Assembly: GCA_043808785.1 (NCBI GenBank)
Contig: JAZDEL010000001.1
Coordinates: 60,001-92,000, forward strand
DNA length: 32,000 bases
Reading direction: 5' to 3'
Origin: Candidatus Iainarchaeum sp.
Lineage (GTDB): Archaea > Iainarchaeota > Iainarchaeia > Iainarchaeales > JAZDEL01
Numbering within the stretch: position 1 is the first letter of the stretch; every line of letters begins with the position of its first letter. The position numbers and the translations under genes are program-made. The notes under the pieces were generated by a model, which worked only from the letters and a program-made list of their open reading frames with translations, made no database searches and was not told the origin of the DNA. Shown piece by piece: positions 9,959 to 30,930 of the stretch.

Positions 9959-9989
9959 TATTTAATTCGTTTTGCACGCCAAATTCAGC

Positions 9990-10651: not shown

Positions 10652-10672
10652 TTTGCTTATCGGCCTTTGGGC

Positions 10673-10951
10673 TCACTTCTGCCTCTGCTTCGGCAGCATC
10701 ACTTCAGTGTTCGCGTCGTTAACGAAATTCGCCATCTTTTCCGAAACAGGGCGGAAGGGCTGTGCAGCCATTTCACGCCCTTCCGCGCCGTTGTCGCCGT
10801 GCTGCCTTACTGTTCCCGGGATGTAAACGGCCTTCCCCTTGAGCATATCGAGCCCCGAAACCTGGAAAAGGCTTCTGCACTTCTGCGAGCAGAAAACATT
10901 GTCACCCTTAACTTCATAAATTATCCCGCAGCGCGGGCACATCTTTTTCAT
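10673..10951 (-). CDS. zinc-ribbon protein with CxxC...FCSxxC (zf-FCS/TRASH-like) motif
   Basis: The N-terminus MKKMCPRCGIIYEVKGDNVFCSQKCRSLF carries the motif. The rest of the protein is low complexity. Confidence 0.6.
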   Translation of the reverse strand: MKKMCPRCGIIYEVKGDNVFCSQKCRSLFQVSGLDMLKGKAVYIPGTVRQHGDNGAEGREMAAQPFRPVSEKMANFVNDANTEVMLPKQRQK

Positions 10952-11136
10952 ATTTACACCCGTTATCCGAATGCCGATTGCCGCCTGAATTATGTTCGGA
11001 AATTATTAAATAACCCCCGCTCCAGTGAGGAAGCCGGGCACGCCGGGCTGGATGAACCGTATCCCCCGCGCGATTGTGACCATGCCCCTCGTTGTGGAAA
11101 GCACCATTGCCCCCCGAAAAGGAAAAGTCGGGGCCT

Positions 11137-11316
11137 TCAGTCGCCGCTTATGTACATGTCCCTGCACCTTGGGCTGCAGAACCTGTGGGCATATAGGCTG
11201 CCGGACTGTTCGGCCAGCTCATTGCCGCAGTTCATGCATTTCGGCGCGCCCCTGCTGTATGCAAAGGTGCCGTTGTTCGCAGCCCTGTCGGAATACCGCT
11301 TGTTAACATAATTCAT
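11137..11316 (-). CDS. zinc-ribbon protein with CxxC...FCSxxC (zf-FCS/TRASH-like) motif, 59 aa
   Basis: MNYVNKRYSDRAANNGTFAYSRGAPKCMNCGNELAEQSGSLYAHRFCSPRCRDMYISGD. GGAGG lies 7 nt before ATG 11316, and the ORF-track start at 11367 is likely too early. Confidence 0.6.
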   Translation of the reverse strand: MNYVNKRYSDRAANNGTFAYSRGAPKCMNCGNELAEQSGSLYAHRFCSPRCRDMYISGD

Positions 11317-11339
11317 TGTCCCGCCTCCATGAACGGATT

Positions 11340-11426
11340 TTAATAGTCGTCGTCCGCGTCCTCGCAATCGCCGCCGAACGAATCGTCATCGCCGTCGTCG
11401 CCAAACTGCCGGATTATTTTTGCCAT
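11340..11426 (-). CDS. acidic micro-ORF 1 (28 aa): MAKIIRQFGDDGDDDSFGGDCEDADDDY
   Basis: My own translation; the ORF is below the track's size cutoff. It ends 23 nt before the zinc-ribbon gene start. Shares MAK..F..DDDSF..D-rich features with micro-ORF 2. Only a weak G-run precedes the ATG. Confidence 0.4.
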   Translation of the reverse strand: MAKIIRQFGDDGDDDSFGGDCEDADDDY

Positions 11427-11550
11427 TTAACGCCCCCCGCCGGGATTTATGTGCCAAAAGCCGGGCGGCAAGCCCTGCCTGTGCACAACAATCTATGCCC
11501 CATATCGGATATTTAAAAATATTGTTGGGCCGGGCGTATGCGGTAAGATA

Positions 11551-11582
11551 TAAAAAAAGGCGGGAAGGCACATAAGTGCCTT
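11551..11582 (-). terminator. hairpin AAGGCAC-ttat-GTGCCTT followed by a T7 run (minus strand)
   Basis: 7-bp stem at 11565-11582 and an A7 run at 11552-11558 on the plus strand, 46 nt downstream of the micro-ORF 2 stop. Confidence 0.45.
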
Positions 11583-11627
11583 CGGAGCATAAGCAACGCA
11601 CGGCTCCGGAAAGCCTTGCACGGCTTG

Positions 11628-11729
11628 TCAGATTTCCTCGTCTGAGCTCTCGTCGCCGTCGTCGTCGAAAGAATCGTCGTCGTCGAACTCCTCTTCTTCC
11701 TCTTCCAGCACCTTCTTTTCCTTAGCCAT
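11628..11729 (-). CDS. acidic micro-ORF 2 (33 aa): MAKEKKVLEEEEEEFDDDDSFDDDGDESSDEEI
   Basis: My own translation; the ORF is below the track's size cutoff. AGGAGG lies 8 nt upstream of ATG 11729 (revcomp of ttcctcctt) and it has its own hairpin/oligo-T terminator. Confidence 0.5.
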   Translation of the reverse strand: MAKEKKVLEEEEEEFDDDDSFDDDGDESSDEEI

Positions 11730-11947
11730 GGGTTTTTCCTCCTTGCAGGTGTATTTACAATCTTTCTGTTGCCGTATTGGGCTGCGGGATTTTCGGGGAA
11801 TTCCCGAACCAGCTTACCATATTCCCCCCGCTGTATTGTATTTAAATATATTGTTCGCGGCGCCCGGCCCGCACTTTCCCCCCCGGAAAACTCCGCAAGC
11901 CGTGCCGGAATGAACCGCGGAAACGCACGCGAATTTATTTTTTCCGC

Positions 11948-12053
11948 AAAAAAAATGCGGCGTTCAAAAAAATCCCTGAGTTTCCGAAAAAAAAATCCCG
12001 CGGTTCAAAAAAATCCGCGGTTTCGGGAAAAAATAATCTATTTTCAAAAAAAA
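11948..12053. repeat. six phased A-tracts (A6-A9) forming a degenerate ~20-bp tandem repeat, A(n)-TCCGCGG-TTTC-like units
   Basis: A-runs start at 11948, 11966, 11987, 12007, 12028 and 12046, giving spacings of 18, 21, 20, 21 and 18. Read directly from the sequence. Confidence 0.85.
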
Positions 12054-12116
12054 TTCCTGAAATTTTCCGCAACAGAAATGAATATATATCCGCACGCCCA
12101 TTATATTGCGAACACC

Positions 12117-13466
12117 ATGGCGAGCAATAACCAGAACGGCAACGGAAAGGAGCCGAAAAACCAGAACGGCAACGGAAAGCCGCCGAAAAAATTTCTTTTT
12201 GTCTCCATCGACGGCCTCATCGGCGACATCGCCTGGCAGATCGTGAAGGAGGGGCACAAGGTAAAATATTTCATCGAGTGCAAGGACGAGAAGGAAGTGG
12301 CGAGCGGCTTCGTGCCGATGGTTGATGACTGGGAAAAGGAAGTCGGCTGGGCGGACGTGATCGTTTTCGACGATGTGCTCGGCCAGGGAACCAAGGCCAA
12401 GAAACTTCGCGACGAGGGCAAGCATGTTGTCGGCGGCACTCCCTACACCGACAAGCTCGAGGACGACAGGGGTTTCGGGCAGGAGGAACTGAAGAAGGCG
12501 GGCGTGCCGATTCTTCCTTACAAAGAGTTCACATCTTTCGACGAGGCGATAAAATTCGTGCAGGACAATCCCGGAAGGTATGTGATCAAGCCGAGCGGGG
12601 AGGCGCAGAACATAAAGAGCATGCTTTTTGTCGGGGAGGACGACGAGGGAAAGGACGTCTTACAGGTGCTGAGCGACTACAACAAGGCGTGGTCGAAAAA
12701 AATCCCGGTTTTCCAATTGCAGAAGTGTGTTATGGGTGTCGAGGTTGCTGTCGGCGCCTTTTTCAACGGCAAGGAATTCATCTACCCCATAAACGTGAAC
12801 TTCGAGCACAAGAAGCTTTTCCCGGGAAACCTCGGCCCTTCGACGGGAGAAATGGGCACGCTCATGTTCTGGAGCGGCCCGAACCGCATATTCAACCAGA
12901 CGCTTAAAAAAATGGAGCCGAAACTCGCCGAGGAAAAATATGTCGGATACATAGACATAAACTGCATAGTGAACTACAACGGAATTTATCCGCTTGAATT
13001 CACCTCGCGCTTCGGCTACCCCACAATCAGCATACAGCAGGAAGGGATGATAACGCCCATAGGCGAATTCCTCTACGAGCTTGCAAAGGGCGAGGCGCCC
13101 AAATGGCGCGTAAAGAGCGGGTTCCAGATGGGCGTGAGGATTGTGGTTCCGCCATTCCCGTTTGATGACCCCGAAACCTTCAATGTGAAATCGAAGGACA
13201 CGCTGATATTCTTCAAGAAGCCCACCGATGGCATACATGTGGAGGACGTGAAGCTCGTGAACGGGGAATGGCTGATCACGGGGACGGCGGGTGTCGTTCT
13301 TATCGTCTGCGGCACAGGGCAGACCGTGAAGCAGGCACAGGCACAGGCATACGGCAGGATAAGCAACGTCATGATACCGAACATGTATTACCGCACGGAC
13401 ATCGGCGACCGCTGGTTCGAGGACAGCGACAGGCTGCATAATTGGGGCTATCTGAGGGAACTGTGA
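12117..13466 (+). CDS. PurD-like ATP-grasp ligase (phosphoribosylamine-glycine ligase family, divergent)
   Basis: Matches the PurD pattern at FEHKKLFPGNLGPSTGEMGT (cf. HKR..D.GPNTGGMG), LEFTSRFGYPT (cf. EFNCRFGDPE), the GVVLIVCGTGQTVKQAQAQAY tail and YYRTDIGDR. The N-domain lacks GGREHA. Start taken at ATG 12117, because the upstream in-frame part of the ORF-track call runs through the A-tract array. Confidence 0.8.
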   Translation: MASNNQNGNGKEPKNQNGNGKPPKKFLFVSIDGLIGDIAWQIVKEGHKVKYFIECKDEKEVASGFVPMVDDWEKEVGWADVIVFDDVLGQGTKAKKLRDEGKHVVGGTPYTDKLEDDRGFGQEELKKAGVPILPYKEFTSFDEAIKFVQDNPGRYVIKPSGEAQNIKSMLFVGEDDEGKDVLQVLSDYNKAWSKKIPVFQLQKCVMGVEVAVGAFFNGKEFIYPINVNFEHKKLFPGNLGPSTGEMGTLMFWSGPNRIFNQTLKKMEPKLAEEKYVGYIDINCIVNYNGIYPLEFTSRFGYPTISIQQEGMITPIGEFLYELAKGEAPKWRVKSGFQMGVRIVVPPFPFDDPETFNVKSKDTLIFFKKPTDGIHVEDVKLVNGEWLITGTAGVVLIVCGTGQTVKQAQAQAYGRISNVMIPNMYYRTDIGDRWFEDSDRLHNWGYLREL

Positions 13467-13505
13467 AAAGCGCGGGCAGGCTAGTGCTGTTGCAAGGTGA
13501 ACTGT

Positions 13506-13838
13506 ATGGTAAAATACAAAAAAGTCATGCATGCGGGCATCTTAAAGAATATACGATTCCACTCAGGAGTGACTGAAAAGGAGAAAGGGCAGATATTAAG
13601 GGCGCTAAGGTTAAAACTTACGGGGCTTGAAAAGTTTCCAGTGTACAAGTCCCTCCCATTTAAATACCGCATACTTGCGAACTATTTCAAGTCTAAGAAT
13701 GAGCCGGGGCTGATGAAGTATTACGCAAAATTGGCAGTTTTTGGATATTTGAAGAATGAAACTAGCCGTAATAATGCACTTGCTGTTCTGCGGGAATTTA
13801 ATATAACTGATTCTGAAATTAGAGGGAAGTTAAAATAA
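13506..13838 (+). CDS. hypothetical protein (110 aa) in an AT-rich islet
   Basis: AAGGTGA lies 5 nt before ATG 13506. Lys-rich, with no motif recognised. Confidence 0.45.
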   Translation: MVKYKKVMHAGILKNIRFHSGVTEKEKGQILRALRLKLTGLEKFPVYKSLPFKYRILANYFKSKNEPGLMKYYAKLAVFGYLKNETSRNNALAVLREFNITDSEIRGKLK

Positions 13839-14015
13839 ATTATAACAAGTAAATGCAGAGGCATGCGGATAAATACAAATCAGCCGCGATTTTACGAAAA
13901 GGAATCTGTGCCTTGTGTGATTCGCTTAGCCGTATATTGTGGACTGGCCTTAGTTAATATTTATTGAACAGTCAGCCGCAATGCCGCGCCTTGCGAAACT
14001 AGCGCAAGCGCGCCC

Positions 14016-14342
14016 CTACTCCCTGCTACCCGTGAATTTTATCTTCTTCGTTATCCCGTCCTCGCCCCAGAGGTATGTGAGTTCCACGGGCTCGCCCTGC
14101 GAAAGCCATATCCTCCTGTTGCCGGGGTTGTCGCCTTTCAGGGTGAAGAGCCTGCAGTATTCCACCAGTGCCCTGCCGCCCCTGACATCAATCAGCGTGA
14201 AAACCGCCTCGTCGTTACCGTTCGCGCGTATCCTGTCGAACTTCTCCCCGTTTGCGGCCTCGAACGAAAGCTCCCCCATCTTCTTCCTGAATGGCGGCCT
14301 CCACTGGTTCTCTATGCTCTTGACCTCGAAAATTGCCTTCAT
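14016..14342 (-). CDS. hypothetical protein (108 aa)
   Basis: MKAIFEVKSIENQWRPPF... A G-rich SD-like run precedes ATG 14342. No motif recognised. Confidence 0.5.
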   Translation of the reverse strand: MKAIFEVKSIENQWRPPFRKKMGELSFEAANGEKFDRIRANGNDEAVFTLIDVRGGRALVEYCRLFTLKGDNPGNRRIWLSQGEPVELTYLWGEDGITKKIKFTGSRE

Positions 14343-14489
14343 AACCCCGCCCCCGAACCCGCACGAATCCAAAAATCGTTTTTATATCTGATTAAGAGTG
14401 GCGAACGTTTAAATGCCTTGCTGTTCCGCGGGCGCGGAAACGGGAACAACTGAACCGAAATAAACCTTTTCCGCCGGTTGTTTTTTGTT

Positions 14490-14516
14490 TTGGCGCCAGC
14501 GAACCCGCGGCGCCAA
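14490..14516 (+). promoter_or_regulatory. strong GC hairpin (TTGGCGCC...GGCGCCAA, plus 3 inner bp) in the ~110-nt leader of the DUF475/CaCA operon, preceded by a T6GT4 tract
   Basis: Read directly from the sequence. TATA-like TTTAAAT at 14408-14414. Confidence 0.3.
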
Positions 14517-14553
14517 CAATAGGTTTATTTACCCGATACGCCAAAATAGCCTT

Positions 14554-15522
14554 ATGGACCTGCTGTCGATAATCCTTACCGTTGCGGGGCTGTGCCTGTT
14601 CGAGGCGATATGCAGCATAGACAACGCAATTATAAATGCGGATGTCCTCTCCACTATGAAGGAAAAGGCAAGGCGCTGGTTCCTGCTTTGGGGCCTGCTG
14701 TTTGCGGTTTTCATAGTGCGCGGAGTTCTGCCCTGGCTCATAGTGTGGCTTGCCACCCCCTCCCTTGGCCCTGTTGACGCGCTTTTCGCAACCTTCAGCA
14801 GCGACCCGAAGGTTATTGATGCCATCAAGGTCTCCAAGCCCGTACTGCTGATGGCGGGGGGCGTCTTCCTCGTGTTTTTGTTTTTCCACTGGCTTTTCAT
14901 GGAGCCGAAAAAATACGGGCTCAAGGGGGAGCGCTTCTTCCACGCGCAGAGCGTCTGGTTTTTCGCCGTGGTTTCCGTGCTTCTTGCCGCGATTGTGTGG
15001 TTCGCAATGCCGATGAACCAGATGATGGCTTTCGGCGCGGTTGTGGGGTCAACGGCGTTTTTCATAACCCACGGCTTCAAGCAGAACGCGGAGCAGAGCG
15101 AGAAGCGGCTTATGAAAGAAGGGCTGTCGGACATGAGCAAGATATTCTATCTCGAGGTAATCGACACGACTTTTTCGATAGACGGCGTGATAGGCGCTTT
15201 CGCGTTCACGCTATCCGTTCCGCTTATAATCCTCGGAAACGGCTTCGGCGCAGTGGTTGTGCGGCAGGTCACGATAGGGAACCTAAAGAACATAAAAAAA
15301 TACGCGTACCTCAAAAACGGCGCGATGTACTCCATACTTGTGCTCGGCACAATAATGGTTGCGGACGCGTTCGGCGCGCACATACCGAGCTGGCTCTCGC
15401 CTGTTGCGACGTTCGCTATTATAGGGTTTTTCTTTTATAAATCAGTTATGGAAAACAGGGCGAACCCAAAAGGGAACGCGGAAAGCGCCGGAAAGGCGGC
15501 GCCCTTGGAAGGGGTGAAGTAA
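14554..15522 (+). CDS. DUF475 / TerC-superfamily integral membrane protein
   Basis: MDLLSIILTVAGLCLFEAICSIDNAIINADVLSTM... is the DUF475-type N-terminal motif. Multi-TM protein. Confidence 0.8.
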   Translation: MDLLSIILTVAGLCLFEAICSIDNAIINADVLSTMKEKARRWFLLWGLLFAVFIVRGVLPWLIVWLATPSLGPVDALFATFSSDPKVIDAIKVSKPVLLMAGGVFLVFLFFHWLFMEPKKYGLKGERFFHAQSVWFFAVVSVLLAAIVWFAMPMNQMMAFGAVVGSTAFFITHGFKQNAEQSEKRLMKEGLSDMSKIFYLEVIDTTFSIDGVIGAFAFTLSVPLIILGNGFGAVVVRQVTIGNLKNIKKYAYLKNGAMYSILVLGTIMVADAFGAHIPSWLSPVATFAIIGFFFYKSVMENRANPKGNAESAGKAAPLEGVK

Positions 15523-15524
15523 CA

Positions 15525-16463
15525 ATGCTGCCGGCACTCATTGTTTTTTTCGCCGCCCTTGCGGTGCTCATGCTGAGCAGCAGGATTGTGATAGATAAAT
15601 CGATAAAAATTTCCGAATACCTCGGGATTTCACAGCTTGCCGTGGGGTTCATACTTATCGCCATTACCGTTTCCCTTCCCGACCTGGTGGTTTCCGTTAT
15701 GGCATCCTACTCGGGCAGCCCGGAGATGGGGGTAGGCGACGCGCTAGGCAGCACAGTTGCGAACATCTGCCTCGTGCTCGGGATAGTGACGCTTGTCAGG
15801 AGAATAAACGTGGAGCGCAGGCACGTGCTCGACAGCACGGAACTGCTCCTGCTTATAGGAGCCGTGCCCGCGATTTTCCTCGTTCTCGGCACCATGGGCA
15901 GGATCGAGGGCGTTGTGCTGCTCGTGCTTTTCCTGATTTACTGCTTCTTCATAATAAGGGGAAATTTCAGCCTGAAGATAAAGGACGGGGTTTCGCACAG
16001 GGACATCGGGAAAACCGTTTTCCTCTTCTTCATTTCCCTTGCGGTTGTTATGCTGAGTTCGGGATTTGTTGTGGGCAGCGCCGGCGAGGTTGCGCTTGCC
16101 TTCGGTTTCGGCGAGGCGGTGCTCGGCCTTACATTAATCTCTTTCGGCACGACCCTGCCGGAGCTTGCCGTGGATTTCGCCGCAGTCAGGAGGGGGCAGA
16201 CCGCGCTTGCCATCGGCGACATACTCGGCAGCAGCGTAGTAAACCTCACCCTCGTGCTCGGCTCGGTGCTCGTGATAAACCCGCTAAAGGAGAGCGTATC
16301 GGTTTTCACGCTGGCGATTGCGTTCGTGATTATCTCGAACACATTCCTTTTCTACTCCCTTGTGAAGCACGAGGGCATAGGGAAGAAGCAGGGGATAGTG
16401 TTCATACTGATGTACGTGCTTTTCATAATAATGTCCCTGGGCTCGCGGGCGATTTCGGGATAA
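15525..16463 (+). CDS. Ca2+/cation antiporter (CaCA, Na+/Ca2+ exchanger family)
   Basis: Two alpha-repeats, GDALGSTVANICLVLG and GDILGSSVVNLTLVLG. Starts 2 nt after the preceding stop. Confidence 0.85.
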   Translation: MLPALIVFFAALAVLMLSSRIVIDKSIKISEYLGISQLAVGFILIAITVSLPDLVVSVMASYSGSPEMGVGDALGSTVANICLVLGIVTLVRRINVERRHVLDSTELLLLIGAVPAIFLVLGTMGRIEGVVLLVLFLIYCFFIIRGNFSLKIKDGVSHRDIGKTVFLFFISLAVVMLSSGFVVGSAGEVALAFGFGEAVLGLTLISFGTTLPELAVDFAAVRRGQTALAIGDILGSSVVNLTLVLGSVLVINPLKESVSVFTLAIAFVIISNTFLFYSLVKHEGIGKKQGIVFILMYVLFIIMSLGSRAISG

Positions 16464-16491
16464 GCGCAAGTGCATAGTGAAGTGCGCGCCG

Positions 16492-18660
16492 TCAAATTGA
16501 CAGGCGGGCAAGCAGATATGCAGTCGTGGATTCAGCACCCTCATTGGCGTTCACTCCCTGCCTTGTTATTCCGTCGAAGCAGCCCCCGCTTGCCCTGTCG
16601 TAAACTTCCATGTTTGCCGAGTTCTTCCCGAGGAACCAGTCGAACGACTCCCTCGCGCTTTTCAGGTATTTTTTGTCCCCTGTTTTTTTGAATGCCGCGA
16701 GGTATGCCGCGGTCATTCCCGAGGCCTCGAGCGGCTGCTGGTCGTACAAAGACCGCTCCCCGCCCCTTTCGTACCATTTTTCCTGCCCTATTGGCACAAG
16801 CTTGCCGTTTATGAAAACCGTGTCGGTAAGGAACGACAGCGACTCAACAGCGACCTCCTTAGCCCTCCCGCCCCTGTCGTATTCGTGGCATTCGAACAGC
16901 GCCTCGGGGATCCTGCTGTTGTTGTACGTGAGGTACGGCTCGAACCATTTCCAGCTTTCGTCGCTTTCGGATTCGTACCTCGAAACAAGGGAATCGATGA
17001 GCCCGCCCATGAGTTCCGGTGCCTTTTCAGGCACAGCCTTTGCCACTGCGAGCCCCATCAGCGTGTGTGCCTGCGCCCTCGGGGATTTTATCTCGATGCC
17101 GTGTTTCAGCGTATCATCCAGTATTTTTTTCGCCCTCAGCCTGTGTTCATCCGGCAGGCCGCTGCCGTACGCGTGCCCGAGCGCCCATACCGCGCGCCCG
17201 AAACTGTCCTCGCTGCCTTTCTCATCCATGAATTCCCGCCTGCCGCTGAGCACATTGTGGAACCCGCCGTCGGGAGTGCCGCATTTTTCTATGAAATTAA
17301 TGAAAGTATCCGCAAACCTCAGCATTCTCCTCGTGCCGAACCTTTCATAGCCCTTTGCCGCAACCATAAGCGCGCGGGCGTTGTCGTCGAGCGTATATCC
17401 GCTTCCTATGTCGGGCGTTGTGTAATCCGCGAACTGTATCATGCCGAAATCGTCCGTCATGTTCGAGAAGTGCCTGAAGCTTATGCGCGGCAGCCCGCTT
17501 TTGGTTTCAATCGGCGCAAGTTCCCCCAGCGCGTTCAGGTACTGTATCGAAACGTTCGGCCATGACATCTTCCTGCTGAACTCGAATGCGTTCTTCTCCA
17601 TGCCGCGCCTGAGCGCGTTGTCCGAGAGAAGCCTTATCGCCCCATCCGCAAACCCCTTCGGGCTGTTGTCCGCGACAATAATTCCCCTGCCGTTCGCAAG
17701 GATCTCCTCGTTGTATTTTGTTTTCGAGGCGACGATTGCCTTGCCCGCACCGAGCGCGTAACTTACTGTCCCGCTGGTTATCTGCTTCTGGTCGAGGGAT
17801 GTCGCGAAATAAACCGTAGCAATCTGCAGGAAGTCGGTTATCTCCCTTATGGAGAGGAACTTGTTCCAGAACTTCACATGCTTGCCCGCCCCCGTTTTCC
17901 TCACCAGCGCCTTAAGTTCGTTCCTGTAATCCTCGCCGCTCTCCTCCCTCACTTTCGGGTGGGTCTGGCCGAGTATCACGTAGATGCAGTCCGGATGCCT
18001 CTTCACTATTTCCGGCATCGCCATTATCGCGTTTTCAATTCCCTTGCCCCTGCTCAAAAGCCCGAATGTGAGTATTATTTTTTTCCCCTCAAGCCCGTAC
18101 TTTTTCTTTATCGCCTCGCCGCTCCCGAAACTCACGGGCGGCACGCCGTGCAGTATGACCTTCATTTTTTCCCCAGGCACGCCGTAATGCTCTACGAGTA
18201 TTTTTTTCGCGTTCTCGGTCATCACGACAACAGTATCGCTGTGCGCGAAAATATCCCGCACGACATCCCTCATTCCCTGTTCGGGGTTTTCGAGCACGGT
18301 GTGCAGCGTAGTGATTATTTTTTTGTCCGTGCGCTCCATAAGCCTTATCAGATGCGAGCCGTAATTCCCCCCGAATATCCCGAACTCGTGCTGCACGCTG
18401 AGCACATCCGCGCCGCGCATGGAGTTTATCTTTTCCGCGGCGGCATCATAGCTCTCTATATTCGGCTCGGTTATCGTGCAGATTACGTTCTTAGGGTATT
18501 TGCGGAAGATGGATTCGTCCTCATTCATGGCTATTATTGCGGGGCTGATGCCGTTGCCCGCCTTTTTACTGATGGCGTCGGAGAGGTCCCTTGTGAAAGT
18601 CGCTATTCCGCATTCCCTCGGATGGTATGTTCCGAGAAAGAGTATTTTTTTCGCGCCCAT
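16492..18660 (-). CDS. GT4 glycosyltransferase fused to a ~330-aa C-terminal (alpha/alpha)-toroid-like domain
   Basis: The N-terminal ~390 aa is a typical GT-B/GT4 fold (KILFLGTYHPRECGIATFTRDL...). The C-terminal half (MIQFADYTTPDIGSGYTLDDNARALMV...FGRAVWALG...) looks like a six-hairpin glycosidase fold. Confidence 0.8.
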   Translation of the reverse strand: MGAKKILFLGTYHPRECGIATFTRDLSDAISKKAGNGISPAIIAMNEDESIFRKYPKNVICTITEPNIESYDAAAEKINSMRGADVLSVQHEFGIFGGNYGSHLIRLMERTDKKIITTLHTVLENPEQGMRDVVRDIFAHSDTVVVMTENAKKILVEHYGVPGEKMKVILHGVPPVSFGSGEAIKKKYGLEGKKIILTFGLLSRGKGIENAIMAMPEIVKRHPDCIYVILGQTHPKVREESGEDYRNELKALVRKTGAGKHVKFWNKFLSIREITDFLQIATVYFATSLDQKQITSGTVSYALGAGKAIVASKTKYNEEILANGRGIIVADNSPKGFADGAIRLLSDNALRRGMEKNAFEFSRKMSWPNVSIQYLNALGELAPIETKSGLPRISFRHFSNMTDDFGMIQFADYTTPDIGSGYTLDDNARALMVAAKGYERFGTRRMLRFADTFINFIEKCGTPDGGFHNVLSGRREFMDEKGSEDSFGRAVWALGHAYGSGLPDEHRLRAKKILDDTLKHGIEIKSPRAQAHTLMGLAVAKAVPEKAPELMGGLIDSLVSRYESESDESWKWFEPYLTYNNSRIPEALFECHEYDRGGRAKEVAVESLSFLTDTVFINGKLVPIGQEKWYERGGERSLYDQQPLEASGMTAAYLAAFKKTGDKKYLKSARESFDWFLGKNSANMEVYDRASGGCFDGITRQGVNANEGAESTTAYLLARLSI

Positions 18661-18869
18661 TGTATAAAGATAGCAGCGGCAGTTTATTTATGCTTTGCCA
18701 TTGCGCGTTGCGCGCACTGCCGCGCCCCCCCGCACCTGCCCCGTGCGGCCGCGCCGGCGGCCGAAGCAATGCGCGAGCGCCGCGCGCGCCATGAACTGAG
18801 CGCAACCACAACTAAAGCCGCGCGCGAACCCTGCCCGCATAAGTGCGGGGCGCCGCCGCGCATTGGGCG

Positions 18870-19964
18870 CTACCTCGTGCGCTGCAGCGAATCCAGTATC
18901 GCGCGGATGCGCACTTTCCTCGCGGAGATGCATGTGTCCGCGCCGCCGCTGTAGACAATCACGCTCTTTCCGTCAATGTCCGGTATTGCCGCTGTCGGGA
19001 ACACCACGCCCCCGAGGAACCCCTCGGTTTCAAATTCGTATTTCGGCGCGAAGAGCGGCTCCCTTGCGGGGCTTATGCCGAGCACTTTCCCGGGGTTCTT
19101 CAGGTCGAACAGCACCGCGCCCGCGCTGTATATTTTCTTAGAGGACGGGTTGCGCCTGTTTTTCAGGTGCACGCCGTGGTATATCGCAAGCCAGCCCTCA
19201 TCCGTCTTTATCGGCACGCTCCCCGCGCCTATGCGCAGCGCATCCCAGCCCGTCTTCCTCGGCTTCATTATCGGCCTGTCCTTTCCCCAGAAAACAAGGT
19301 CCTTCGAATATGAGAGCCAGATGCCCGGCTTGTCGAATATCATCGTTCCCTCCGGCCTGTTCATCGCCACATAGTAGCCGTTTATTTTTTCCGGATAAAT
19401 CACGACATCCTTGTTCTGCTGCCTGAAAATTATCCCTTTTCTCTCCCAGATGTTGAGGTCGTTCGAAAGCGCGAGAGATGTGGAGACGCCGCTGGACATG
19501 GATATCGAAACATAGGTCATCGCGTACCGCCCCTCCTTCGCGAAGTGCGTTATTCTCGGATCCTCGACCCCGAAATCCCCGTCCTCGGTCCTCCCCGCGA
19601 AATCCATGGTTCCGCTTATTTCCTCGGCGTGCATTCCCCCCTTATCGAGCAGAATCTTCCTGATGTGCGATAATGTCGGCAGCCTGTAGATTTCGTCGTT
19701 CATGACAAAGAGGCCCTCGCGCTGCTTCATCTTTTCCCTGCGTATCCTTTCTATGACGAAATGGCTGCGCTCCCTTCCCGCGAACCTCGGCGCTATGAAT
19801 GTCTTCTCGTCGTGGTATGGCGTTTCCGCAACCCTTGCGAAAAGCAGTATTTTTTTGTTCTTCAGCCTTACCGCCGCGGGGTTGAACACGCCCCTTACCC
19901 TCATGCTTTTCAGGCTGGGCATCACCTGTTCGGGCGTGACAACTAACGTTGCTTTCGCATCCAT
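18870..19964 (-). CDS. GH130 family beta-mannoside phosphorylase/hydrolase (DUF377-type glycosidase)
   Basis: FNPAAV, GVEDPRIT, NKDVVIYPEKING, GWDALRIGAG and AIYHGV are five-bladed propeller GH130 hallmarks. Confidence 0.85.
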   Translation of the reverse strand: MDAKATLVVTPEQVMPSLKSMRVRGVFNPAAVRLKNKKILLFARVAETPYHDEKTFIAPRFAGRERSHFVIERIRREKMKQREGLFVMNDEIYRLPTLSHIRKILLDKGGMHAEEISGTMDFAGRTEDGDFGVEDPRITHFAKEGRYAMTYVSISMSSGVSTSLALSNDLNIWERKGIIFRQQNKDVVIYPEKINGYYVAMNRPEGTMIFDKPGIWLSYSKDLVFWGKDRPIMKPRKTGWDALRIGAGSVPIKTDEGWLAIYHGVHLKNRRNPSSKKIYSAGAVLFDLKNPGKVLGISPAREPLFAPKYEFETEGFLGGVVFPTAAIPDIDGKSVIVYSGGADTCISARKVRIRAILDSLQRTR

Positions 19965-20012
19965 GCTACCTATTAACGCATGCCAGTATTTATTTTTTTT
20001 GCCCGCGGCAGA

Positions 20013-21776
20013 TTAAGCCCTTATGCGGCCTGAAGACGCCCTGTCCGCAATTACAACGGCATTCCTGTGCTTTTGCAGTATTGAGGCGGGGCATTTTTCA
20101 CCCGGCTTTCCCTTGGCCATCCTTCCCATTGCCGCGGCCTTCTCCCTGCCGCCCGCCATAAGCACAACCGCCCTTGCGCGCATTATCGTCTCAAGGCCGA
20201 TTGTGATTGCCGTCCTCGGCACACGCTCCCCCTTTTCGAAAAACCTTTTGTTCGCCTTAATTGTGCCCCCGCTCAGTTCCACAATGCGGGTTTTGCTTTT
20301 GAAGTTCGTTCCGGGCTCGTTGAACGCGATATGCCCGTTCCTGCCTATGCCGAGCAGAATTAAATCTATGCCGTGCGCGCCAGCAAAATTTTCAAACCGC
20401 GCGCACTCCGCCTTCAACTCCTTTGCAGAGCCGTCGAAGAGGAAAACATTTTCCTTCCGCGCGTTTACCTTCCCGAGGAAATTTTTCATGAGGGAGCAAG
20501 CGAAACTGTTCCTGTGCCCGTGCGCCAGCCCCGCATATTCGTCAATGCCGAAGAATTTAGCCTTTGAGAAATCAACATGCCCCGCCCTGTGCGCCTTCAC
20601 GAGTTCCGCATATGTTCCCGAAGGCGTTCCCCCCGCGGGAATTCCTATAACGCTTTCCGGCTTCCCATTCACTTGCCCGATTATCAGTTCCGCAGCCCTC
20701 TTCGAAAGTTCGCCGTAGCCCTTCACTGCCTCGAACTGGATGAGGTTTTTGCCCCGCATGTATTTCAGGATTTCATTTTCCCGCGGCACTGCAAGCCCGT
20801 GCCTTGCCACTTTCGTTCCGGCAACGAAGTTCCCTATCCTCAGGCAGTTCCTTTCCGACCAGCCGTTGATTTTCCCGTAAATGAAGCCCGCGTTGAAAAC
20901 ATCCCCTGCAGCGGTTGTGTCTAGAGCCCTGGCGCGCACCGCTTCTTCGTGAATAATTCGCATCGCTCCCCCCCTCCCTCCCGCGCCAGCGGAGTAAAGC
21001 GTTGCCCCCTTCCCCCCCTCCTTGAGCACCACGCACCGCGCGCCGCTGCGGATGAGATGCTTTATTTTCTCCTTGTGCCCCTTACCTTTTGCAACCTTAC
21101 CAAGCTCCACTTCGTTCAGGAAAAGCATGTCGATGCATTTCAGCATGTGCTTAATCTTCCACTCCCCGTGCTCGTCATAGCAGAGGTCTAACGCCGTTAC
21201 GCAGCCCGCCCTTTTCGCGCGCCCAAGCAGTTCCGCAAAACCCTTGCGCATTGCGCGGAGATGGAAATATCCGCCCGAGTAAACAATATCCCCCGCCCTC
21301 AGCCTTGGCAGGATTTTCCCCCCTATCATTTTGGACGTCAGCTTTCCAAGCGCGCCCTTTATTGAATATATCGCCCTCTCGCCTTTTTTGCCAACCATTA
21401 TCACGGAGCATCCGTTCTGCCCCCGCACTTCCGCAGGGTTCAGTTCCACGCCCGCGGCGCGCAGCGAACCTTCAAGGAACTTTGTCGTGAAATCATTTCC
21501 GGCAGCGCTCACGAGTTCGGTCCGCACGCCGAGCAGTGCCGCGGCATACGCGAAGTTCGCGGCATTCCCGCCGAGCGAAAATGTGATGCCGCGCAATGCG
21601 GCCTCCTCGCCGAATGCCGCCTGCTTCCCCAGTTCGCACAGCACGTCGAGGTTCATGTCGCCTATCGCGAAAACCCTGCGCCCGCCAGCTGCACCGCCCA
21701 AGTAGCCGCCCGCTGCAAAAGCCCTGCGCCCGCCCGCGCCGCCCACGTAACCCGGTGCCGCAAAAACCCCTGTCAT
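20013..21776 (-). CDS. fusion protein: PfkB-family sugar kinase (N) plus glucosamine-6-phosphate deaminase NagB (C)
   Basis: PfkB motifs SLGGNAANFA and DTTAAGDVFNAGF. NagB motifs GIPAGGTPSGTY, FGIDEY and LGIGRNGHIAFNEPG. Start placed at ATG 21776, because the ORF-track start at 22076 would run across the divergent promoter and into the PIG-L gene. Confidence 0.85.
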   Translation of the reverse strand: MTGVFAAPGYVGGAGGRRAFAAGGYLGGAAGGRRVFAIGDMNLDVLCELGKQAAFGEEAALRGITFSLGGNAANFAYAAALLGVRTELVSAAGNDFTTKFLEGSLRAAGVELNPAEVRGQNGCSVIMVGKKGERAIYSIKGALGKLTSKMIGGKILPRLRAGDIVYSGGYFHLRAMRKGFAELLGRAKRAGCVTALDLCYDEHGEWKIKHMLKCIDMLFLNEVELGKVAKGKGHKEKIKHLIRSGARCVVLKEGGKGATLYSAGAGGRGGAMRIIHEEAVRARALDTTAAGDVFNAGFIYGKINGWSERNCLRIGNFVAGTKVARHGLAVPRENEILKYMRGKNLIQFEAVKGYGELSKRAAELIIGQVNGKPESVIGIPAGGTPSGTYAELVKAHRAGHVDFSKAKFFGIDEYAGLAHGHRNSFACSLMKNFLGKVNARKENVFLFDGSAKELKAECARFENFAGAHGIDLILLGIGRNGHIAFNEPGTNFKSKTRIVELSGGTIKANKRFFEKGERVPRTAITIGLETIMRARAVVLMAGGREKAAAMGRMAKGKPGEKCPASILQKHRNAVVIADRASSGRIRA

Positions 21777-26471: not shown

Positions 26472-27638
26472 TCAGCACTCGACAGAAACTATGCAGCCCT
26501 GCCCGTCCTTCTGCGGAGTTATCTCATTTCCCTGCACTCCCTTATTAAGGCAGTCAATAACCTGCTGGACGAGTTCGTCGCTTGGCTCTTGGCACTGTTC
26601 AGGCTGGCTCTTTATTATATTCATTCTAATTGCTTCCTGGTCGGACAGGCACTTGTAAGCCGTGATGCAGTTGTCCTTGTCCCTTACCTCCTGCACCGTC
26701 TTCCCTGCGCTGTTGCAGGCGTTCCTTTCCTCATCTGTCATAAATACGGGCTTCCCGCAGGAAGCGGCCCCCATGCATTGCGGATATAGAGGCACGCCCG
26801 ATGCTTTGTTCTCAAGGCTCCTCAGTTCGGCGCCGCTTTCCCACTCCATCTTCGGCATGGAAATCGAAACAGTGTAGGGCAGGCCTATCTCGCTGTCCGT
26901 GCCGCTAACGCAGTAAACAATCTCGCCCCTGAAGCCGCTGTTGCCCTTCACGTTCACGCTGAAGTCCGTGCACGGCACGCTGTAAGCATTTGAGGCGCCT
27001 TTTTTTATCATGGAAACGCTCCCCGCAATATCGCCGAAATTGGTGCCCGTATAGTAAACATCCTTTAGCAGGGTCGGGATGTCCGCTTCCCAGATTTCCC
27101 GTGAGCTTAGGTTTTTCCCGCCGCCGGCAACTATCGAGTTAAGCTGCGTCAGCAGGGCCTGCCCCGTCTTTCCGGGCTTGGCATCGTCGAACGCAAGCTC
27201 GGACTTGTCAATCCAGCCTGAACTGCCGAACTCGCCGTTGTCAAGGTAGAGCGTAAATTTTGCCCAGGGCATATTTTCGGAACTCTTGCCTTCGTTATAG
27301 GAGGTCATTACGCCCGCAACCGCATCCCTCCCCCCGCACTTAATCTCCTTCTCAAGGTAATAGACAACGTACATGTCAAACTTCTCATCCCCCTTCTCTC
27401 CCTTGTACATCGGCACAACGTATGTAAAGGCAAGCGGCAGTTCGATTTCGACCTTCTCCGTAACCTCGCCCCCGGAAGGAACCGCTTCCCCGCCCCCTGT
27501 AGCCCCCCCGCCCTCCGGCGCCGGGCCAACCTCCGGCCCCGCGGCAGCGCCAGTATCTGCCCCCTGCTGCCCGGGAATCCCCGCACAGCCGCACAGCAGA
27601 ATAAGCGGAATAACCGCGGCAAACCACATGCATCTCAT
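26472..27638 (-). CDS. secreted/lipobox surface protein, Gly/Pro-rich linker, Cys-rich C-terminus, unknown function
   Basis: The signal MRCMWFAAVIPLILLCGCAG is lipobox-like. It is followed by a low-complexity linker and 9 Cys in the last ~110 aa. Confidence 0.65.
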   Translation of the reverse strand: MRCMWFAAVIPLILLCGCAGIPGQQGADTGAAAGPEVGPAPEGGGATGGGEAVPSGGEVTEKVEIELPLAFTYVVPMYKGEKGDEKFDMYVVYYLEKEIKCGGRDAVAGVMTSYNEGKSSENMPWAKFTLYLDNGEFGSSGWIDKSELAFDDAKPGKTGQALLTQLNSIVAGGGKNLSSREIWEADIPTLLKDVYYTGTNFGDIAGSVSMIKKGASNAYSVPCTDFSVNVKGNSGFRGEIVYCVSGTDSEIGLPYTVSISMPKMEWESGAELRSLENKASGVPLYPQCMGAASCGKPVFMTDEERNACNSAGKTVQEVRDKDNCITAYKCLSDQEAIRMNIIKSQPEQCQEPSDELVQQVIDCLNKGVQGNEITPQKDGQGCIVSVEC

Positions 27639-27658
27639 GTGAGGTTATATGCCCTAAC

Positions 27659-27669
27659 TTGTATTTAAT
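27659..27669 (-). promoter_or_regulatory. TATA-like box (minus strand ATTAAATACAA) for the 26472..27638 gene
   Basis: Lies 21-31 nt upstream of ATG 27638. The identical 11-mer occurs at 27865-27875 on the plus strand. Confidence 0.45.
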
Positions 27670-27690
27670 ATTTTGCAATCCGCAGGCTCT

Positions 27691-27838
27691 GTAGAAATCC
27701 TTTATAAAACCCAAAAATCGGGTTCGCAAAACCCGGCAAACCGCCCTATTTTGCCTTTCGGCAAAATGGGCGCAATTGGCGAGAGCCAATTAGCGCTGGT
27801 TTGCGGCGGTTTGTTTTTTTGGTTTTGAGGATTTCTAC
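27691..27838. repeat. 148-bp unit bounded by perfect 11-bp inverted repeats (GTAGAAATCCT / AGGATTTCTAC) and flanked by a 12-nt direct repeat with 1 mismatch (27676-27687, 27845-27856)
   Basis: Read directly from the sequence. The unit contains twin-hairpin copy A. Confidence 0.6.
27737..27820 (+). repeat. twin-hairpin element, copy A (closing 9-bp stem, two hairpins, T7 tail); possible small structured RNA or leader
   Basis: P1 27737-45/27805-13, hairpin 1 27748-67, hairpin 2 27770-96 with a bulged A, and T7 at 27814-20. TTTATAAA at 27701-08. Confidence 0.5.
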
Positions 27839-27864
27839 ACGGCACAATCCGTAGGCGGAGGCTT

Positions 27865-27875
27865 ATTAAATACAA
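27865..27875 (+). promoter_or_regulatory. TATA-like box ATTAAATACAA for the beta-helix protein gene
   Basis: Lies 21-31 nt upstream of ATG 27896. Confidence 0.45.
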
Positions 27876-27895
27876 TTAAACTTATAATCTGGCAA

Positions 27896-29080
27896 ATGGC
27901 GGGGAACAAAAACAAAAGGTTAATTCCGGCAGGCAAAAACAAAAAATTAATTTTAGCGGCAATAATTATTCCGGTTTTCTTAGCAGCGGCCCTTTCCGGC
28001 TGCATAAAGGAAACGCCAAAATTCGGCGAGGAGGGGGGCATTGAACTGGCCCATATTGCGGGAAGCAAGGAGGCTGTTGCGCAGGAGGGGGCTGCGCCTG
28101 CGGAAGAAAAAGAATGCGAAGTTAAAGAAGACTGCCCTGACAGGCTTTGCCTTGAAAAGGCATGCGTCGATTACAAGTGCCCTTATTCCGAAACAACCCC
28201 CTGCTGCGGAAACGGGAAATGCGAGCCCGGGGAGACTTACAAAGAATGTGCAGGCGACTGCGTAAAAACAGGCCGCTTCAGGGAATCCGAAGTGTGGGGC
28301 GGGACAATCCATGTCACCGGCGACATATGGGTTGAAGAGGGGGCAACCCTGACCATACTGCCCGGAACGGTTATTGAAGTTGCCGCCATGAGCGATGACC
28401 AGCACGGCGGGGCAGACCATGCCCGTGACCCGCCGTTTCCGAATGACCCCGACAGGATTGAAACACGTAGCACAAGGATTTTTGTGGGGGGAATATTGAA
28501 CGCAATCGGGACGCCAGATAACAGGATCCTCTTTACTTCCGACAGCAAAACCCCGACAACCTATGACTGGGATGGCCTGAGCATCAATCATGGAAAACTG
28601 GAGTATGCAATTGTCGAGTATGCCAGGTATAACAATTTTCAGCATTCCTCCGATGTTGTAGTGGCCAACAGCACCTTCAGGAATATGCTGGAATGCTGCA
28701 TTTGCATCGGCCACAGCGGGGCAATCAGCCCGCAGATACTGCACAATGACATTTACAACTGCGGCCATGAATGCATCGATTATGCCGGCGGCTCCGCCCT
28801 GATAAAGGGCAATCATTTCCATCTCGAGAACCCGGAGATACAGCCGGACCCTTCAAGGGGAGGGAACGGAATTATTGTATACAGGAATGCATATCCCGCC
28901 ATTGAAGACAATGTTTTCGAGAAACATTCAAGGGCAATATTCTTTCTTGACAACTCCCTCAATGAAGAAGAGCCCGGAAATCGGGTTATTGTCAGGAACA
29001 ATACGATGAAAAGCAACGATATGGGCATCGATATAGACCCGGGTTACCCGGCCGATGCAATTATTATGGAAAACAATTAA
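27896..29080 (+). CDS. lipobox surface protein with Cys-rich module and right-handed parallel beta-helix repeats
   Basis: FLAAALSGC lipobox. Cys-rich CEVKEDCPDRLCLEKACVDYKCPY..CCGNGKCEPGETYKECAGDC. Repeated beta-helix-like segments (NSTFRN, IGHSGAISPQILHNDIYN, IKGNHFH, VRNNTMKSNDMGIDI). Confidence 0.75.
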   Translation: MAGNKNKRLIPAGKNKKLILAAIIIPVFLAAALSGCIKETPKFGEEGGIELAHIAGSKEAVAQEGAAPAEEKECEVKEDCPDRLCLEKACVDYKCPYSETTPCCGNGKCEPGETYKECAGDCVKTGRFRESEVWGGTIHVTGDIWVEEGATLTILPGTVIEVAAMSDDQHGGADHARDPPFPNDPDRIETRSTRIFVGGILNAIGTPDNRILFTSDSKTPTTYDWDGLSINHGKLEYAIVEYARYNNFQHSSDVVVANSTFRNMLECCICIGHSGAISPQILHNDIYNCGHECIDYAGGSALIKGNHFHLENPEIQPDPSRGGNGIIVYRNAYPAIEDNVFEKHSRAIFFLDNSLNEEEPGNRVIVRNNTMKSNDMGIDIDPGYPADAIIMENN

Positions 29081-29152
29081 TCGGCAATCAAAAAGGCGAG
29101 GCATTTTGCGGCACGGTTTTCTTTCGGGGCAGCCTGTGCCTCAGTTTCAGCC

Positions 29153-29224
29153 CCCCTGTTTTGGCCCGCGCCAAAACGGGCGCAATTGGGCAACGCCCAA
29201 TTAGCGCGGTTCGTGTTTGTTTTT
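29153..29224 (+). repeat. twin-hairpin element, copy B (in the 3' region of the beta-helix gene)
   Basis: Hairpin 1 29158-77, hairpin 2 29180-29207 with a bulged A, and a GTTTGTTTTT tail at 29215-24. About 75% identical to copy A, and stem differences are compensated. Confidence 0.5.
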
Positions 29225-29286
29225 GCCGCAGCCATGCGAACCATTGCCGCGTGTTTGTGCATGTGTTCCTGCCCGCGGCTGGGCGC

Positions 29287-29305
29287 AATAAAAATAAAAA
29301 AGAAA
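29287..29305 (-). terminator. oligo-T tract (minus strand TTTCTTTTTTATTTTTATT) downstream of the CxxC ribbon gene
   Basis: A-rich run on the plus strand, about 45 nt after the stop at 29350. Confidence 0.4.
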
Positions 29306-29349
29306 CAGAGAATTACACAATTGCTTCCGGAAATAACCGACGTTAATAA

Positions 29350-29514
29350 TCAGTAGTTCCTGTCGCGTCCCCTCGAGGGCTTCTTGTGTTTCATGTAGCA
29401 GTCGCGGCAATATACAGGCCTCGTTCCGTCGGGCTTAAAGGGGACTTCCGTCTCCTGTCCGCACTCGGAGCAAGTTACCTTGAACATCTGCCTGCCGAAT
29501 CTGTCTTCAGCCAT
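29350..29514 (-). CDS. CxxC-x17-CxxC zinc-ribbon protein (54 aa)
   Basis: My own translation; the ORF is below the track's size cutoff: MAEDRFGRQMFKVTCSECGQETEVPFKPDGTRPVYCRDCYMKHKKPSRGRDRNY. GGTGA lies about 10 nt before the ATG. The FKVTCSECG...EVPFKP...RPVYCRDCY pattern matches the CxxC-x17-CxxC domain family. Confidence 0.7.
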   Translation of the reverse strand: MAEDRFGRQMFKVTCSECGQETEVPFKPDGTRPVYCRDCYMKHKKPSRGRDRNY

Positions 29515-30393: not shown

Positions 30394-30930
30394 TCAGTTG
30401 CGCTTGCCTTTTCCGATAAATTTCCCAACCGTTCCGAGCAAGTATTTCATATCCCCCTCTGTGAGGTCGAAAAGGCGCTTGCACGCCTCCTTGTTCTTGC
30501 TCACGGTTTCATAGCGGTCTGGCAGAATTTCGGAATACCTGAACAGGTTGTTAACCCCAAAAATCAGGTCGTTAAGGTCTAGTGCCAGGGCGCACTCAGG
30601 GTATTCCTTTCGCGCATCTTTCTCATAAAACATAAATTTATTTGAAATTTCGCGGGGCATAAGCCTGCGGAACATCATAACCCGCTCAAGCCTAATTATT
30701 CTTTTTTGGGCAGGGGTAATTTTCCCTTCATTTGCCAACTTTTTCAGTTCATAGATGTCGCCGAATATTCCGTGTTGCCTTATGTGCCGTTCCAGGAGGC
30801 GTTCAATCCTGTCCATTTTTCTGGAAAAGCCTATGTCTGCGGGTTTTCCCGAAAGTGCGATGTGCATCTTCGCCAAAATATTTGCTGCGAATTTTTGCCC
30901 GATTGTGTCGGCATCGGAACGGCTAAGCAC
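30394..30930 (-). CDS. hypothetical protein (178 aa), no motif recognised
   Basis: ORF with coding-like composition. Confidence 0.5.
   Translation of the reverse strand: MLSRSDADTIGQKFAANILAKMHIALSGKPADIGFSRKMDRIERLLERHIRQHGIFGDIYELKKLANEGKITPAQKRIIRLERVMMFRRLMPREISNKFMFYEKDARKEYPECALALDLNDLIFGVNNLFRYSEILPDRYETVSKNKEACKRLFDLTEGDMKYLLGTVGKFIGKGKRN

Follow-up and report, generated by a model that had tools for sequence, protein, structure and literature searches.

What are the two twin-hairpin elements that stand on either side of a surface-protein gene in the genome of Candidatus Iainarchaeum sp.? The elements lie in a stretch of 32,000 nt (contig JAZDEL010000001.1, positions 60,001 to 92,000), which is called the window here. 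An earlier note, made from the letters of the window alone, described them as a structure under selection and considered a plus-strand RNA or a terminator-type leader of the gene between them. Our analysis suggests that the core of the element, named H, is probably a dispersed palindromic DNA repeat and not a dedicated RNA gene. The full explanation that we favour, with slightly more reserve, is a modular repeat in an Iainarchaeota (Diapherotrites) lineage, built like the repetitive extragenic palindromes (REP) and bacterial interspersed mosaic elements (BIME), nested in a miniature transposable element with inverted repeats (a MITE), named T, that split a bidirectional promoter. This reading is carried by the repeat nature of H, the symmetry of its units, the compensated pairing in all units, the occurrence of T with and without H, and the absence of H at orthologous sites.

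The two copies and the gene between them are as follows.

27744 to 27796, plus strand: H copy A (85.8 bits with covariance model R1; fold; unit alignment).
29154 to 29207, plus strand: H copy B (80.5 bits with R1; fold).
27896 to 29080, plus strand: gene for a right-handed beta-helix surface protein, 100% identical to MFH1224274.1.

Each core is about 55 nt long, and a reading of 27600-29400 found both where the earlier note had placed them. In copy A, hairpin 1 is located at 27748-27767 (ATTTTGCC/tttc/GGCAAAAT) and hairpin 2 at 27770-27796 (GCGC-AATTGGC/gaga/GCCAATT-A-GCGC). The corresponding hairpins of copy B are 29158-29177 (GTTTTGGC/ccgc/GCCAAAAC) and 29180-29207 (GCGC-AATTGGGC/aac/GCCCAATT-A-GCGC). 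The covariance model R1, which was built from the H copies and searched over the 32-kb window, detected no H copy beyond A and B, and the hairpin-2 pattern occurred twice in the window vs 0.00 expected in shuffles. The claim that hairpin 1 differs between the copies by two doubly substituted pairs, with no broken pair, was confirmed. For hairpin 2, the bulged A on the 3' arm was indeed present in both copies, but the reported C-G/G-C swap is better described as one extra G-C pair in copy B, compensated on both arms. Rfam 15 gave no match in the window at gathering thresholds, and in 27500-29500 at E <= 10 only chance-level matches of at most 19 bits appeared, in line with the note, which had recognised no known RNA family in the element. 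A scan for tRNA and tmRNA found none.

Both hairpins are forms of one repeat unit. The H unit is an imperfect palindrome of 25-27 nt with a GC clamp of 3-4 bp, one extrahelical T, a stem of 7-8 bp running from A/T into GGC, and a loop of 3-4 nt. H consists of two such units in opposite orientation, 0-2 nt apart. Unit 1 of copy A reads CCC-T-ATTTTGCC/tttc/GGCAAAAT-GGG on the plus strand, and unit 2 reads GCGC-T-AATTGGC/tctc/GCCAATT-GCGC on the minus strand. It had been proposed that a T/G pair extending hairpin 1 works only as plus-strand RNA. However, an equivalent alternative exists with a bulged T and C-G pairs, mirroring the bulged A of hairpin 2.

A scan for exact hairpin-2 arms, covering 596 Gb of species-representative genomes plus metagenome and viral contigs, gave a single true match among the genomes. 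This locus, L001, belongs to the Ca. Iainarchaeum metagenome-assembled genome (MAG) JBDRDO01. The six pattern matches in metagenome contigs were all due to chance, in coding or unrelated DNA, and the viral contigs held chance matches only (three patterns). The doublet of L001 begins about 35 nt past the stop codon of a 4.7-kb gene encoding a 1581-aa surface protein, in sense orientation and in a convergent region. A split unit (GCGC-T-ATTTTGCC ... GGCAAAAT-GCGC) encloses this doublet in its loop, and a third full unit (GCGC-ATTCGGC/tcaa/GCCGAAT-A-GCGC) comes after it. An outer stem (GGGCTGCC/GGCAGCCC) closes the array, which has three full units and one split unit in total, and no T-tract follows the element. 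A separate 27-nt repeat with a 7-bp hairpin (TGCGCGGAAGGATCCGCGCGTGATCCG) is also present in L001 at 420-446 and 6775-6801; one copy forms the last codons and the stop of the 1581-aa protein, and the other lies inside a minus-strand open reading frame (ORF).

JBDRDO01 is a distant relative, whose RNase HII (P0123, locus L015) shares 64% identity with that of the window. The window's RNase HII is itself 100% identical to MFH1224276.1 from a 'Candidatus Diapherotrites archaeon' MAG, the same that holds MFH1224274.1; the two are encoded on a 214-kb contig. The 1581-aa protein is 64% identical to MFH1224835.1, which appears to belong to the MAG of the window, judging from its neighbouring accession number and V1676 locus tag. 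H and T are patchily distributed and occur in two MAGs that are only about 64% identical for both RNase HII and the giant surface protein. In about 96 kb from relatives (L011-L018, L020), the covariance model found no further H copy, and among all perfect hairpins of at least 7 bp in the same loci there was no single H-type unit.

The seven units aligned from the three loci share the consensus GCGC-T-A(T/A)TT(T)GGC/3-4 nt/GCC(A)AA(T/A)T-GCGC, that is, one architecture on alternating strands. R1 also matched the opposite strand of every H copy with 26-38 bits. The RNA folding energies of the plus and minus strands were -29.9 and -30.1 kcal/mol for copy A, -31.5 and -32.1 for copy B, and -74.1 and -74.3 for the L001 composite; folded as RNA, copy A had a z-score of -5.0 and copy B one of -2.2. 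No feature of H singles out the plus strand.

All eight H units are intergenic, and they contain six different stems (ATTTTGCC, ATTTTGGC, GTTTTGGC, AATTGGC, AATTGGGC and ATTCGGC), every one perfectly Watson-Crick paired. Counted from the sequences, the six stems can be linked by about seven changes, each with its counterpart on the other arm; uncompensated changes are absent, and the stems of the eight units showed no G-U intermediate. Although the stems are compensated, formal covariation measures on the three full copies stay within the range of shuffles (62/500) and with three sequences are not distinguishable from them. Judged from these stems, palindromy is actively maintained in H. Perfect hairpin compensation alone does not indicate a functional RNA. 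The idea of selection on structure stands as far as the palindromy is kept; its RNA-level reading is poorly supported, and both strands fold equally. We suppose that the stems stay palindromic because a single-stranded DNA hairpin would be the form that is recognised or copied.

Palindromes of this kind could also be double-stranded DNA sites of a dimeric regulator (operators of the type TTGGC-N3-4-GCCAA) that controls the surface-protein gene beside them. The units have the form of inverted repeats around a centre of 3-4 bp, two units are adjacent, copy A lies between divergent promoters, and regulators of the Lrp/AsnC type are encoded in the window. However, the half-sites change symmetrically (GCC/GGC, A/G, the extra pair), which keeps the pairing rather than a recognition sequence, and no unit has an intact dyad, since each contains one unpaired T/A. 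Moreover, copies B and L001 are in convergent 3' regions lacking a promoter, and orthologous genes lack the sites. We consider the operator explanation very improbable.

Copy A lies within a larger structure. Several inverted repeats are nested in the divergent intergenic region 27639-27895, where T is located; the parts of T are listed below.

27686 to 27843, no strand assigned: MITE-like element T, whose central hairpin has H copy A in its loop (inverted repeat; match in L015; DNA fold z = -7.3).
27675 to 27687, no strand assigned: left direct repeat flanking T, (G)CAATCCGCAG(GC), resembling a target-site duplication (27676-87 vs 27845-56 match 11/12).
27844 to 27856, no strand assigned: right copy of the same direct repeat, (A)CAATCCGTAG(GC).
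27701 to 27708, no strand assigned: TTTATAAA, its own reverse complement, part of T and kept in the T of L015 (sequence; comparison with L015).
27719 to 27735, no strand assigned: small hairpin of T, CGGGTT/cgcaa/AACCCG (fold; motif comparison).
27737 to 27813, no strand assigned: central hairpin of T, a perfect 9-bp stem of CAAACCGCC (27737-45) and GGCGGTTTG (27805-13), with H in its loop (inverted repeat).
27814 to 27826, plus strand: T-rich tail of the element, TTTTTTTGGTTTT, with its complement AAAACCCAAAAA at 27706-17 (inverted repeat; the tail in L015 is also T-rich).

The inverted ends of T are GCTCTGTAGAAATCC (27686-27700) and GGATTTCTACACGGC (27829-27843), 15 nt long with 13/15 paired, and contain a perfect 12/12 core (TGTAGAAATCCT/AGGATTTCTACA, 27690-701/27828-39). 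The element is flanked by CAATCCGCAGGC/CAATCCGTAGGC, with a target duplication CAATCCGYAGGC matching at 11/12. A second copy of T was found in L015 at 3007-3112. It is 106 nt long (158 nt in the window), with inverted ends matching at 14/16 and a perfect flanking duplication of 11 nt (CGCTGTTAAAG, 11/11). The two copies are 87% identical over 113 aligned columns outside the H segment, and the 24-nt string GGCTCTGTAGAAATCCTTTATAAA of the window T is identical in L015 (3090-3113, minus strand). The window T has 51 bases more, all of them in 27743-27805, the stretch that holds H; in L015 the counterpart of the central stem (AAACTGC/GCGGTTT) encloses only about 9-12 nt, and no twin hairpin. A GGTTCGCA-R-AACC motif is common to the window T, the L015 T and a structure in L013, a locus of a closer relative, and the Logan contig L016 starts inside a further T copy. 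In all, two full copies of T, at unrelated loci of two MAGs, and one partial copy were seen. T has a target duplication and inverted ends and is therefore a transposable element; by these sequence features it is an ordinary MITE. Its duplication of 11 bp would point to an IS4-like DDE transposase as the partner of T. The earlier note had named a clear match to a MITE among the outcomes that would speak against its reading, and this was found for the outer part of copy A, not strictly for the H core.

This result changes the meaning of the signals around copy A. The 9-bp closing stem, the T7 directly 3' of it (27814-27820) and TTTATAAA had been taken as signs of a small RNA, and they are all present at the reported positions. 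However, TTTATAAA, the small hairpin, the closing stem and the T-rich tail all recur in the L015 T, where H is absent, and therefore TTTATAAA, the closing stem and T7 belong to T and not to H. If H, or T with H, were a small non-coding RNA gene, copy A would be transcribed from a TTTATAAA promoter into a three-way-junction RNA of about 85-90 nt that ends at a T7 terminator. The position of TTTATAAA 29 nt before the closing stem, with T7 directly after it, agrees with this model, as do the conservation of TTTATAAA and the T-rich tail in L015 and the folding z-score of copy A. On the other hand, the signals are those of a transposable element, and TTTATAAA equals its own reverse complement inside a MITE arm. 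Upstream of copies B and L001 there is no TATA-like box, Rfam shows no match, and the exact hairpin-2 arms recur in one MAG only, with none in the metagenome collection. With no strand asymmetry in the folding either, the plus-strand small RNA proposed earlier is poorly supported, and we regard a small RNA gene as improbable.

The position of T relative to the promoters is informative for the adjacent gene. Two promoter-like boxes surround it.

27659 to 27670, minus strand: promoter-like box TATTAAATACAA, 20 nt 5' of ATG 27638 of a minus-strand lipoprotein-like gene (12/12 inverted repeat).
27864 to 27875, plus strand: promoter-like box TATTAAATACAA, 20 nt 5' of ATG 27896 of the beta-helix gene and downstream of T/H (12/12 inverted repeat).

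Boxes like TATTAAATACAA also occur upstream of other genes. When T and one copy of its duplication are removed, an intergenic region of 88 nt remains, with one TATTAAATACAA box exactly 20 nt before each ATG; it reads as a compact bidirectional promoter that T would have split. The exact spacing of 20 nt at both genes implies leaderless or near-leaderless transcripts, as far as sequence can indicate. The likely promoter of gene 27896 is the box at 27864-27875. Since this promoter is downstream of the element, H is unlikely to be in the leader of that gene. The proposed terminator-type leader tied to gene 27896 is not supported, and orthologues of the gene exist without H. The 12-bp inverted repeat 27659-70/27864-75 was considered as part of the element itself and rejected; it is absent around the L015 T, and its arms are exactly 20 nt from the start codons.

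Copy B stands in a different setting and is followed by a T-like tail.

29208 to 29262, plus strand: T-like tail after copy B, GGTTCGTGTTTGTTTTT ... CGTGTTTGT (comparison with L013).

Copy B is in a convergent region, between the stop of the beta-helix gene (29080) and a minus-strand gene for a 54-aa zinc-finger protein (29350-29514). The earlier description of its start about 75 nt past the stop and its oligo-T end was accurate: the distance is about 74 nt, and a T5 tract lies 13 nt after the hairpin. A TTTTCTTT tract sits between the stop codon and copy B. H has no fixed position relative to genes: A is divergent, whereas B and L001 are convergent. It had been claimed that the copies bracket a surface-protein gene. 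The beta-helix gene does lie between A and B, but the three copies occur in differing gene contexts.

It is unlikely, although worth weighing, that H acts at the RNA level on the 3' ends of surface-protein mRNAs, as a double hairpin that protects or terminates them in the manner of bacterial REPs and intrinsic terminators, with copy A a stray or an insulator between divergent promoters. Copy B, 3' of a co-oriented gene, and the L001 copy both follow the stops of surface-protein genes closely and in the sense orientation, T-rich tracts follow copies A and B, and the stems are very stable. However, copy A has no co-oriented gene upstream, and its T7 is part of T. L001 shows no T-tract, and the TTTTCTTT tract is already present before copy B. 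Both strands fold equally, and the orthologous genes of relatives lack H. Terminator-like hairpins are not enriched in the window (38 vs 29.9 +/- 6.6; 20 vs 19.6), and a terminator-rich genome was rejected as an explanation on the same numbers.

A single gene enclosed by a structured site in two direct copies, each with extrahelical bases, also recalls integron cassettes, where H would be an attC-like recombination site and the beta-helix gene the cassette; integrons have been reported in Archaea (PMC9668308). Like attC, H conserves structure over sequence and has extrahelical bases. Unlike attC, which is one long bottom-strand hairpin with R/L boxes and core sites, located beside intI and in arrays, H has two separate hairpins and forms no array. 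No RYYYAAC / GTTRRRY core sites were found at the H boundaries, and no integrase was found among the window ORFs scanned. In L001 the copy comes after a gene of 4.7 kb, in a convergent region, and relatives carry the beta-helix gene but not the sites. The attC reading is rejected on anatomy, and we give it hardly any probability.

At orthologous sites of relatives, H is missing. In a much closer relative, the Logan assembly SRR22387960 (L013, L014), RNase HII is 90% identical to that of the window and syntenic DNA is 85% identical, and neither H nor T was seen in about 20 kb of this relative. Synteny of L013 with the window begins at about 29251, just past copy B, and the upstream gene of L013 is unrelated. 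At the copy-B site, L013 has a different T-like nested hairpin and then GTTTGTTTTTTT. Two structures were recorded at this site of L013: tandem 10-bp palindromes at 2511-2534 (GGCTTAAGCC-gaga-GGCTTAAGCC), and after them a nested hairpin at 2596-2650 (CACGGGGAC...CGCGGGTTC/gcag/GAACCCCGCG...GTCCCCGTG plus T7). In L014, which holds the orthologue of the giant gene of L001, no H is found downstream of that gene. Similarly, H is missing on both sides of the beta-helix orthologues in L011/L012, L020 and L021, and an obligatory link of H to the beta-helix gene was rejected on these three loci.

Among known systems, the REP/BIME/REPIN group (REPIN, REP doublet forming hairpin) is close to H in build (PMC3733652, PMC3116915, PMC2817692). 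Both are short, GC-clamped, imperfect palindromes in intergenic DNA, in which an unpaired base gives each unit its orientation, the stems vary with compensation and no target duplication is made. Both form inverted pairs of units 0-5 bp apart, heterodimers, trimers and clusters, and both are nested in longer palindromes. Bacterial REPs were reported to occur as inverted heterodimers 1-5 bp apart, as trimers and clusters, with compensated stems and with dimers inside longer palindromes (PMC3733652). Unlike these repeats, which have a GTAG/CGTC tag and a REP-associated tyrosine transposase (RAYT), H is tagless, was seen at three loci and has a DPANN archaeal host. By analogy, then, H would work like REP/BIME; it is not a demonstrated member of the family.

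Prokaryotic MITEs such as the Correia/NEMIS type resemble T: a length of 106-158 nt, inverted ends of 15 bp, a target duplication of 11-12 nt, no coding capacity, a long hairpin fold, an intergenic position, promoter- or terminator-like motifs, and breaks in short-read assemblies. They differ from the H core, which has no clear terminal inverted repeats or target duplication. A census of MITEs lists DPANN genomes among the MITE-dense archaea (PMC11602168). The subterminal hairpins of the insertion sequences IS200/IS605 are similar to H in being short, having an extrahelical T of the type that Y1 transposases recognise as single-stranded DNA, and leaving the target unduplicated; one of the host genomes (L015) has a tnpA gene of the IS200 type. 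The end hairpins of IS200/IS605 are, however, in direct orientation, and the H units are inverted. An extrahelical T in a GC-clamped hairpin is the type of feature read by Y1 HUH transposases on single-stranded DNA (IS608, REP/RAYT). Non-autonomous derivatives of IS200/IS605, the palindrome-associated transposable elements (PATEs) of haloarchaea, are a further comparison for H.

The history of the locus under the dispersed-repeat explanation may be pictured as follows. T would have inserted in the middle of the compact bidirectional promoter, and copy A would have come to lie in the central hairpin of T. H may land preferentially in the loops of pre-existing hairpins, and it would spread or rearrange as a discrete module whose units can be added or nested, as in L001. 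Copy B adjoins the T-like tail sequence at the synteny breakpoint. The candidate enzyme is an HUH/Y1 protein (IS200-type or RAYT-like), and hairpin-templated repair is the alternative. Effects of H on transcripts, such as 3'-end protection or termination, would be a by-product. The specific route by a Y1 transposase is tentative, and we doubt it somewhat more than we believe it. Still more speculative, and rather unlikely as a whole, is the proposal that H is the repeat partner of an archaeal REP/RAYT-like system, in which a domesticated or IS200-derived Y1 HUH enzyme reads the bulged-T hairpin on either strand and copies the inverted doublet into hairpin loops.

Several points weigh against the dispersed-repeat explanation or its enzymatic part. 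Only three H loci (eight units) are known, in a total of about 56 kb read from the source MAG (32 kb) and the second MAG (about 24 kb). Across genomes that otherwise diverge strongly, H keeps 87% identity, and a selected function predicts the same. Two of the three copies are just past surface-protein genes in sense orientation, as an RNA role would also predict. The T of L015 may have lost H by deletion, instead of the window T having gained it. The GTAG/CGTC tag is absent from the H units, whose flanks are CCC-T or GCGC-T, and GTAG is present only in the inverted ends of T. Neither a defined cleavage motif nor a target duplication was found for H. No RAYT gene was detected among the window ORFs scanned, and the Y1 gene of L015 is IS200-type. 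Its transposase scored 127 bits with NF033573 and 25 bits with the RAYT model (cut-off 80). The hairpins of that insertion sequence (CCCCGYGG/tcttg/CCRCGGGG) are unrelated in sequence to H. Finally, a survey of complete genomes did not observe the RAYT-type Y1 classes in Archaea (PMC6006769). The ends of H were also inspected: no direct repeat abuts any of the three copies, and they show only the pseudo-dyad of the two units.

The IS200-type element of L015 has features of its own. It extends over 2297-2940, with the Y1 tnpA gene at 2420-2857, and this gene is about 150 nt from the T copy. Such a gene in the second MAG speaks for the explanation favoured here. Its end hairpins, CCCCGTGG/tcttg/CCACGGGG and CCCCGCGG/tcttg/CCGCGGGG, differ by a compensated T-A/C-G change. 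A 49-nt direct repeat, 94% identical, brackets the element, an unusual finding in a family whose members do not duplicate their target.

The relatives and the window showed further features outside the subject of H and T. In L014, past the giant-gene orthologue (5400-11857), a tiny ORF (MKYEKPEAKELDNCANWAW) precedes a PqqD-like gene and several radical-SAM/SPASM genes, a layout that resembles a biosynthesis cluster for ribosomally synthesised and post-translationally modified peptides (RiPP) in a DPANN archaeon. In L020 (MAG JBDRLP01), a tyrosine integrase and then a terminase and other phage-like genes are located beside the beta-helix orthologue at 11812-20600, which suggests an integrated virus-like region. 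The genes of the window are archaeal and include ZPR1, DUF3378-RNase HII, subunits of an A/V-type ATPase and Lrp/AsnC regulators. A perfect 12-bp palindrome at 5892-5920 (ATAATTAGTGCG/taatt/CGCACTAATTAT), between a minus-strand Lrp/AsnC gene (5420-5875) and a plus-strand rubrerythrin gene (5959), is probably the operator of that regulator. Upstream of a purD-like gene (ATG 12118), the divergent intergenic region contains tandem repeats rich in A at 11941-12052, whose period is about 41 nt (2.4 copies; sub-periods of 17 and 23 nt); each has a small CCGC/GCGG hairpin and a run of A7-8. A separate 30-nt coding tandem repeat is present just inside the purD-like gene (12129-12190). Between the RNase HII and ZPR1 genes, the minus strand encodes an ORF of 178 aa (30394-30930) that has no match in Pfam and is absent from that place in L013 and L015-L017.

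REP/BIME-like doublets and nested MITEs are textbook features of bacterial intergenic DNA. To our knowledge, such repeats are barely documented in DPANN archaea, whose small genomes are usually assumed to be poor in repetitive DNA. In the explanation favoured here, the locus would consist of three layers, a bidirectional promoter, a MITE within it and a palindromic doublet within the MITE, and it would be a clean example of how a DPANN genome is remodelled around fast-evolving surface-protein genes. A cognate Y1 enzyme, if found, would extend the REP/RAYT paradigm to Archaea. An archaeal REP/RAYT-like system, if true, would be the first REPIN-type system outside Bacteria, and it would exist in a reduced DPANN genome.

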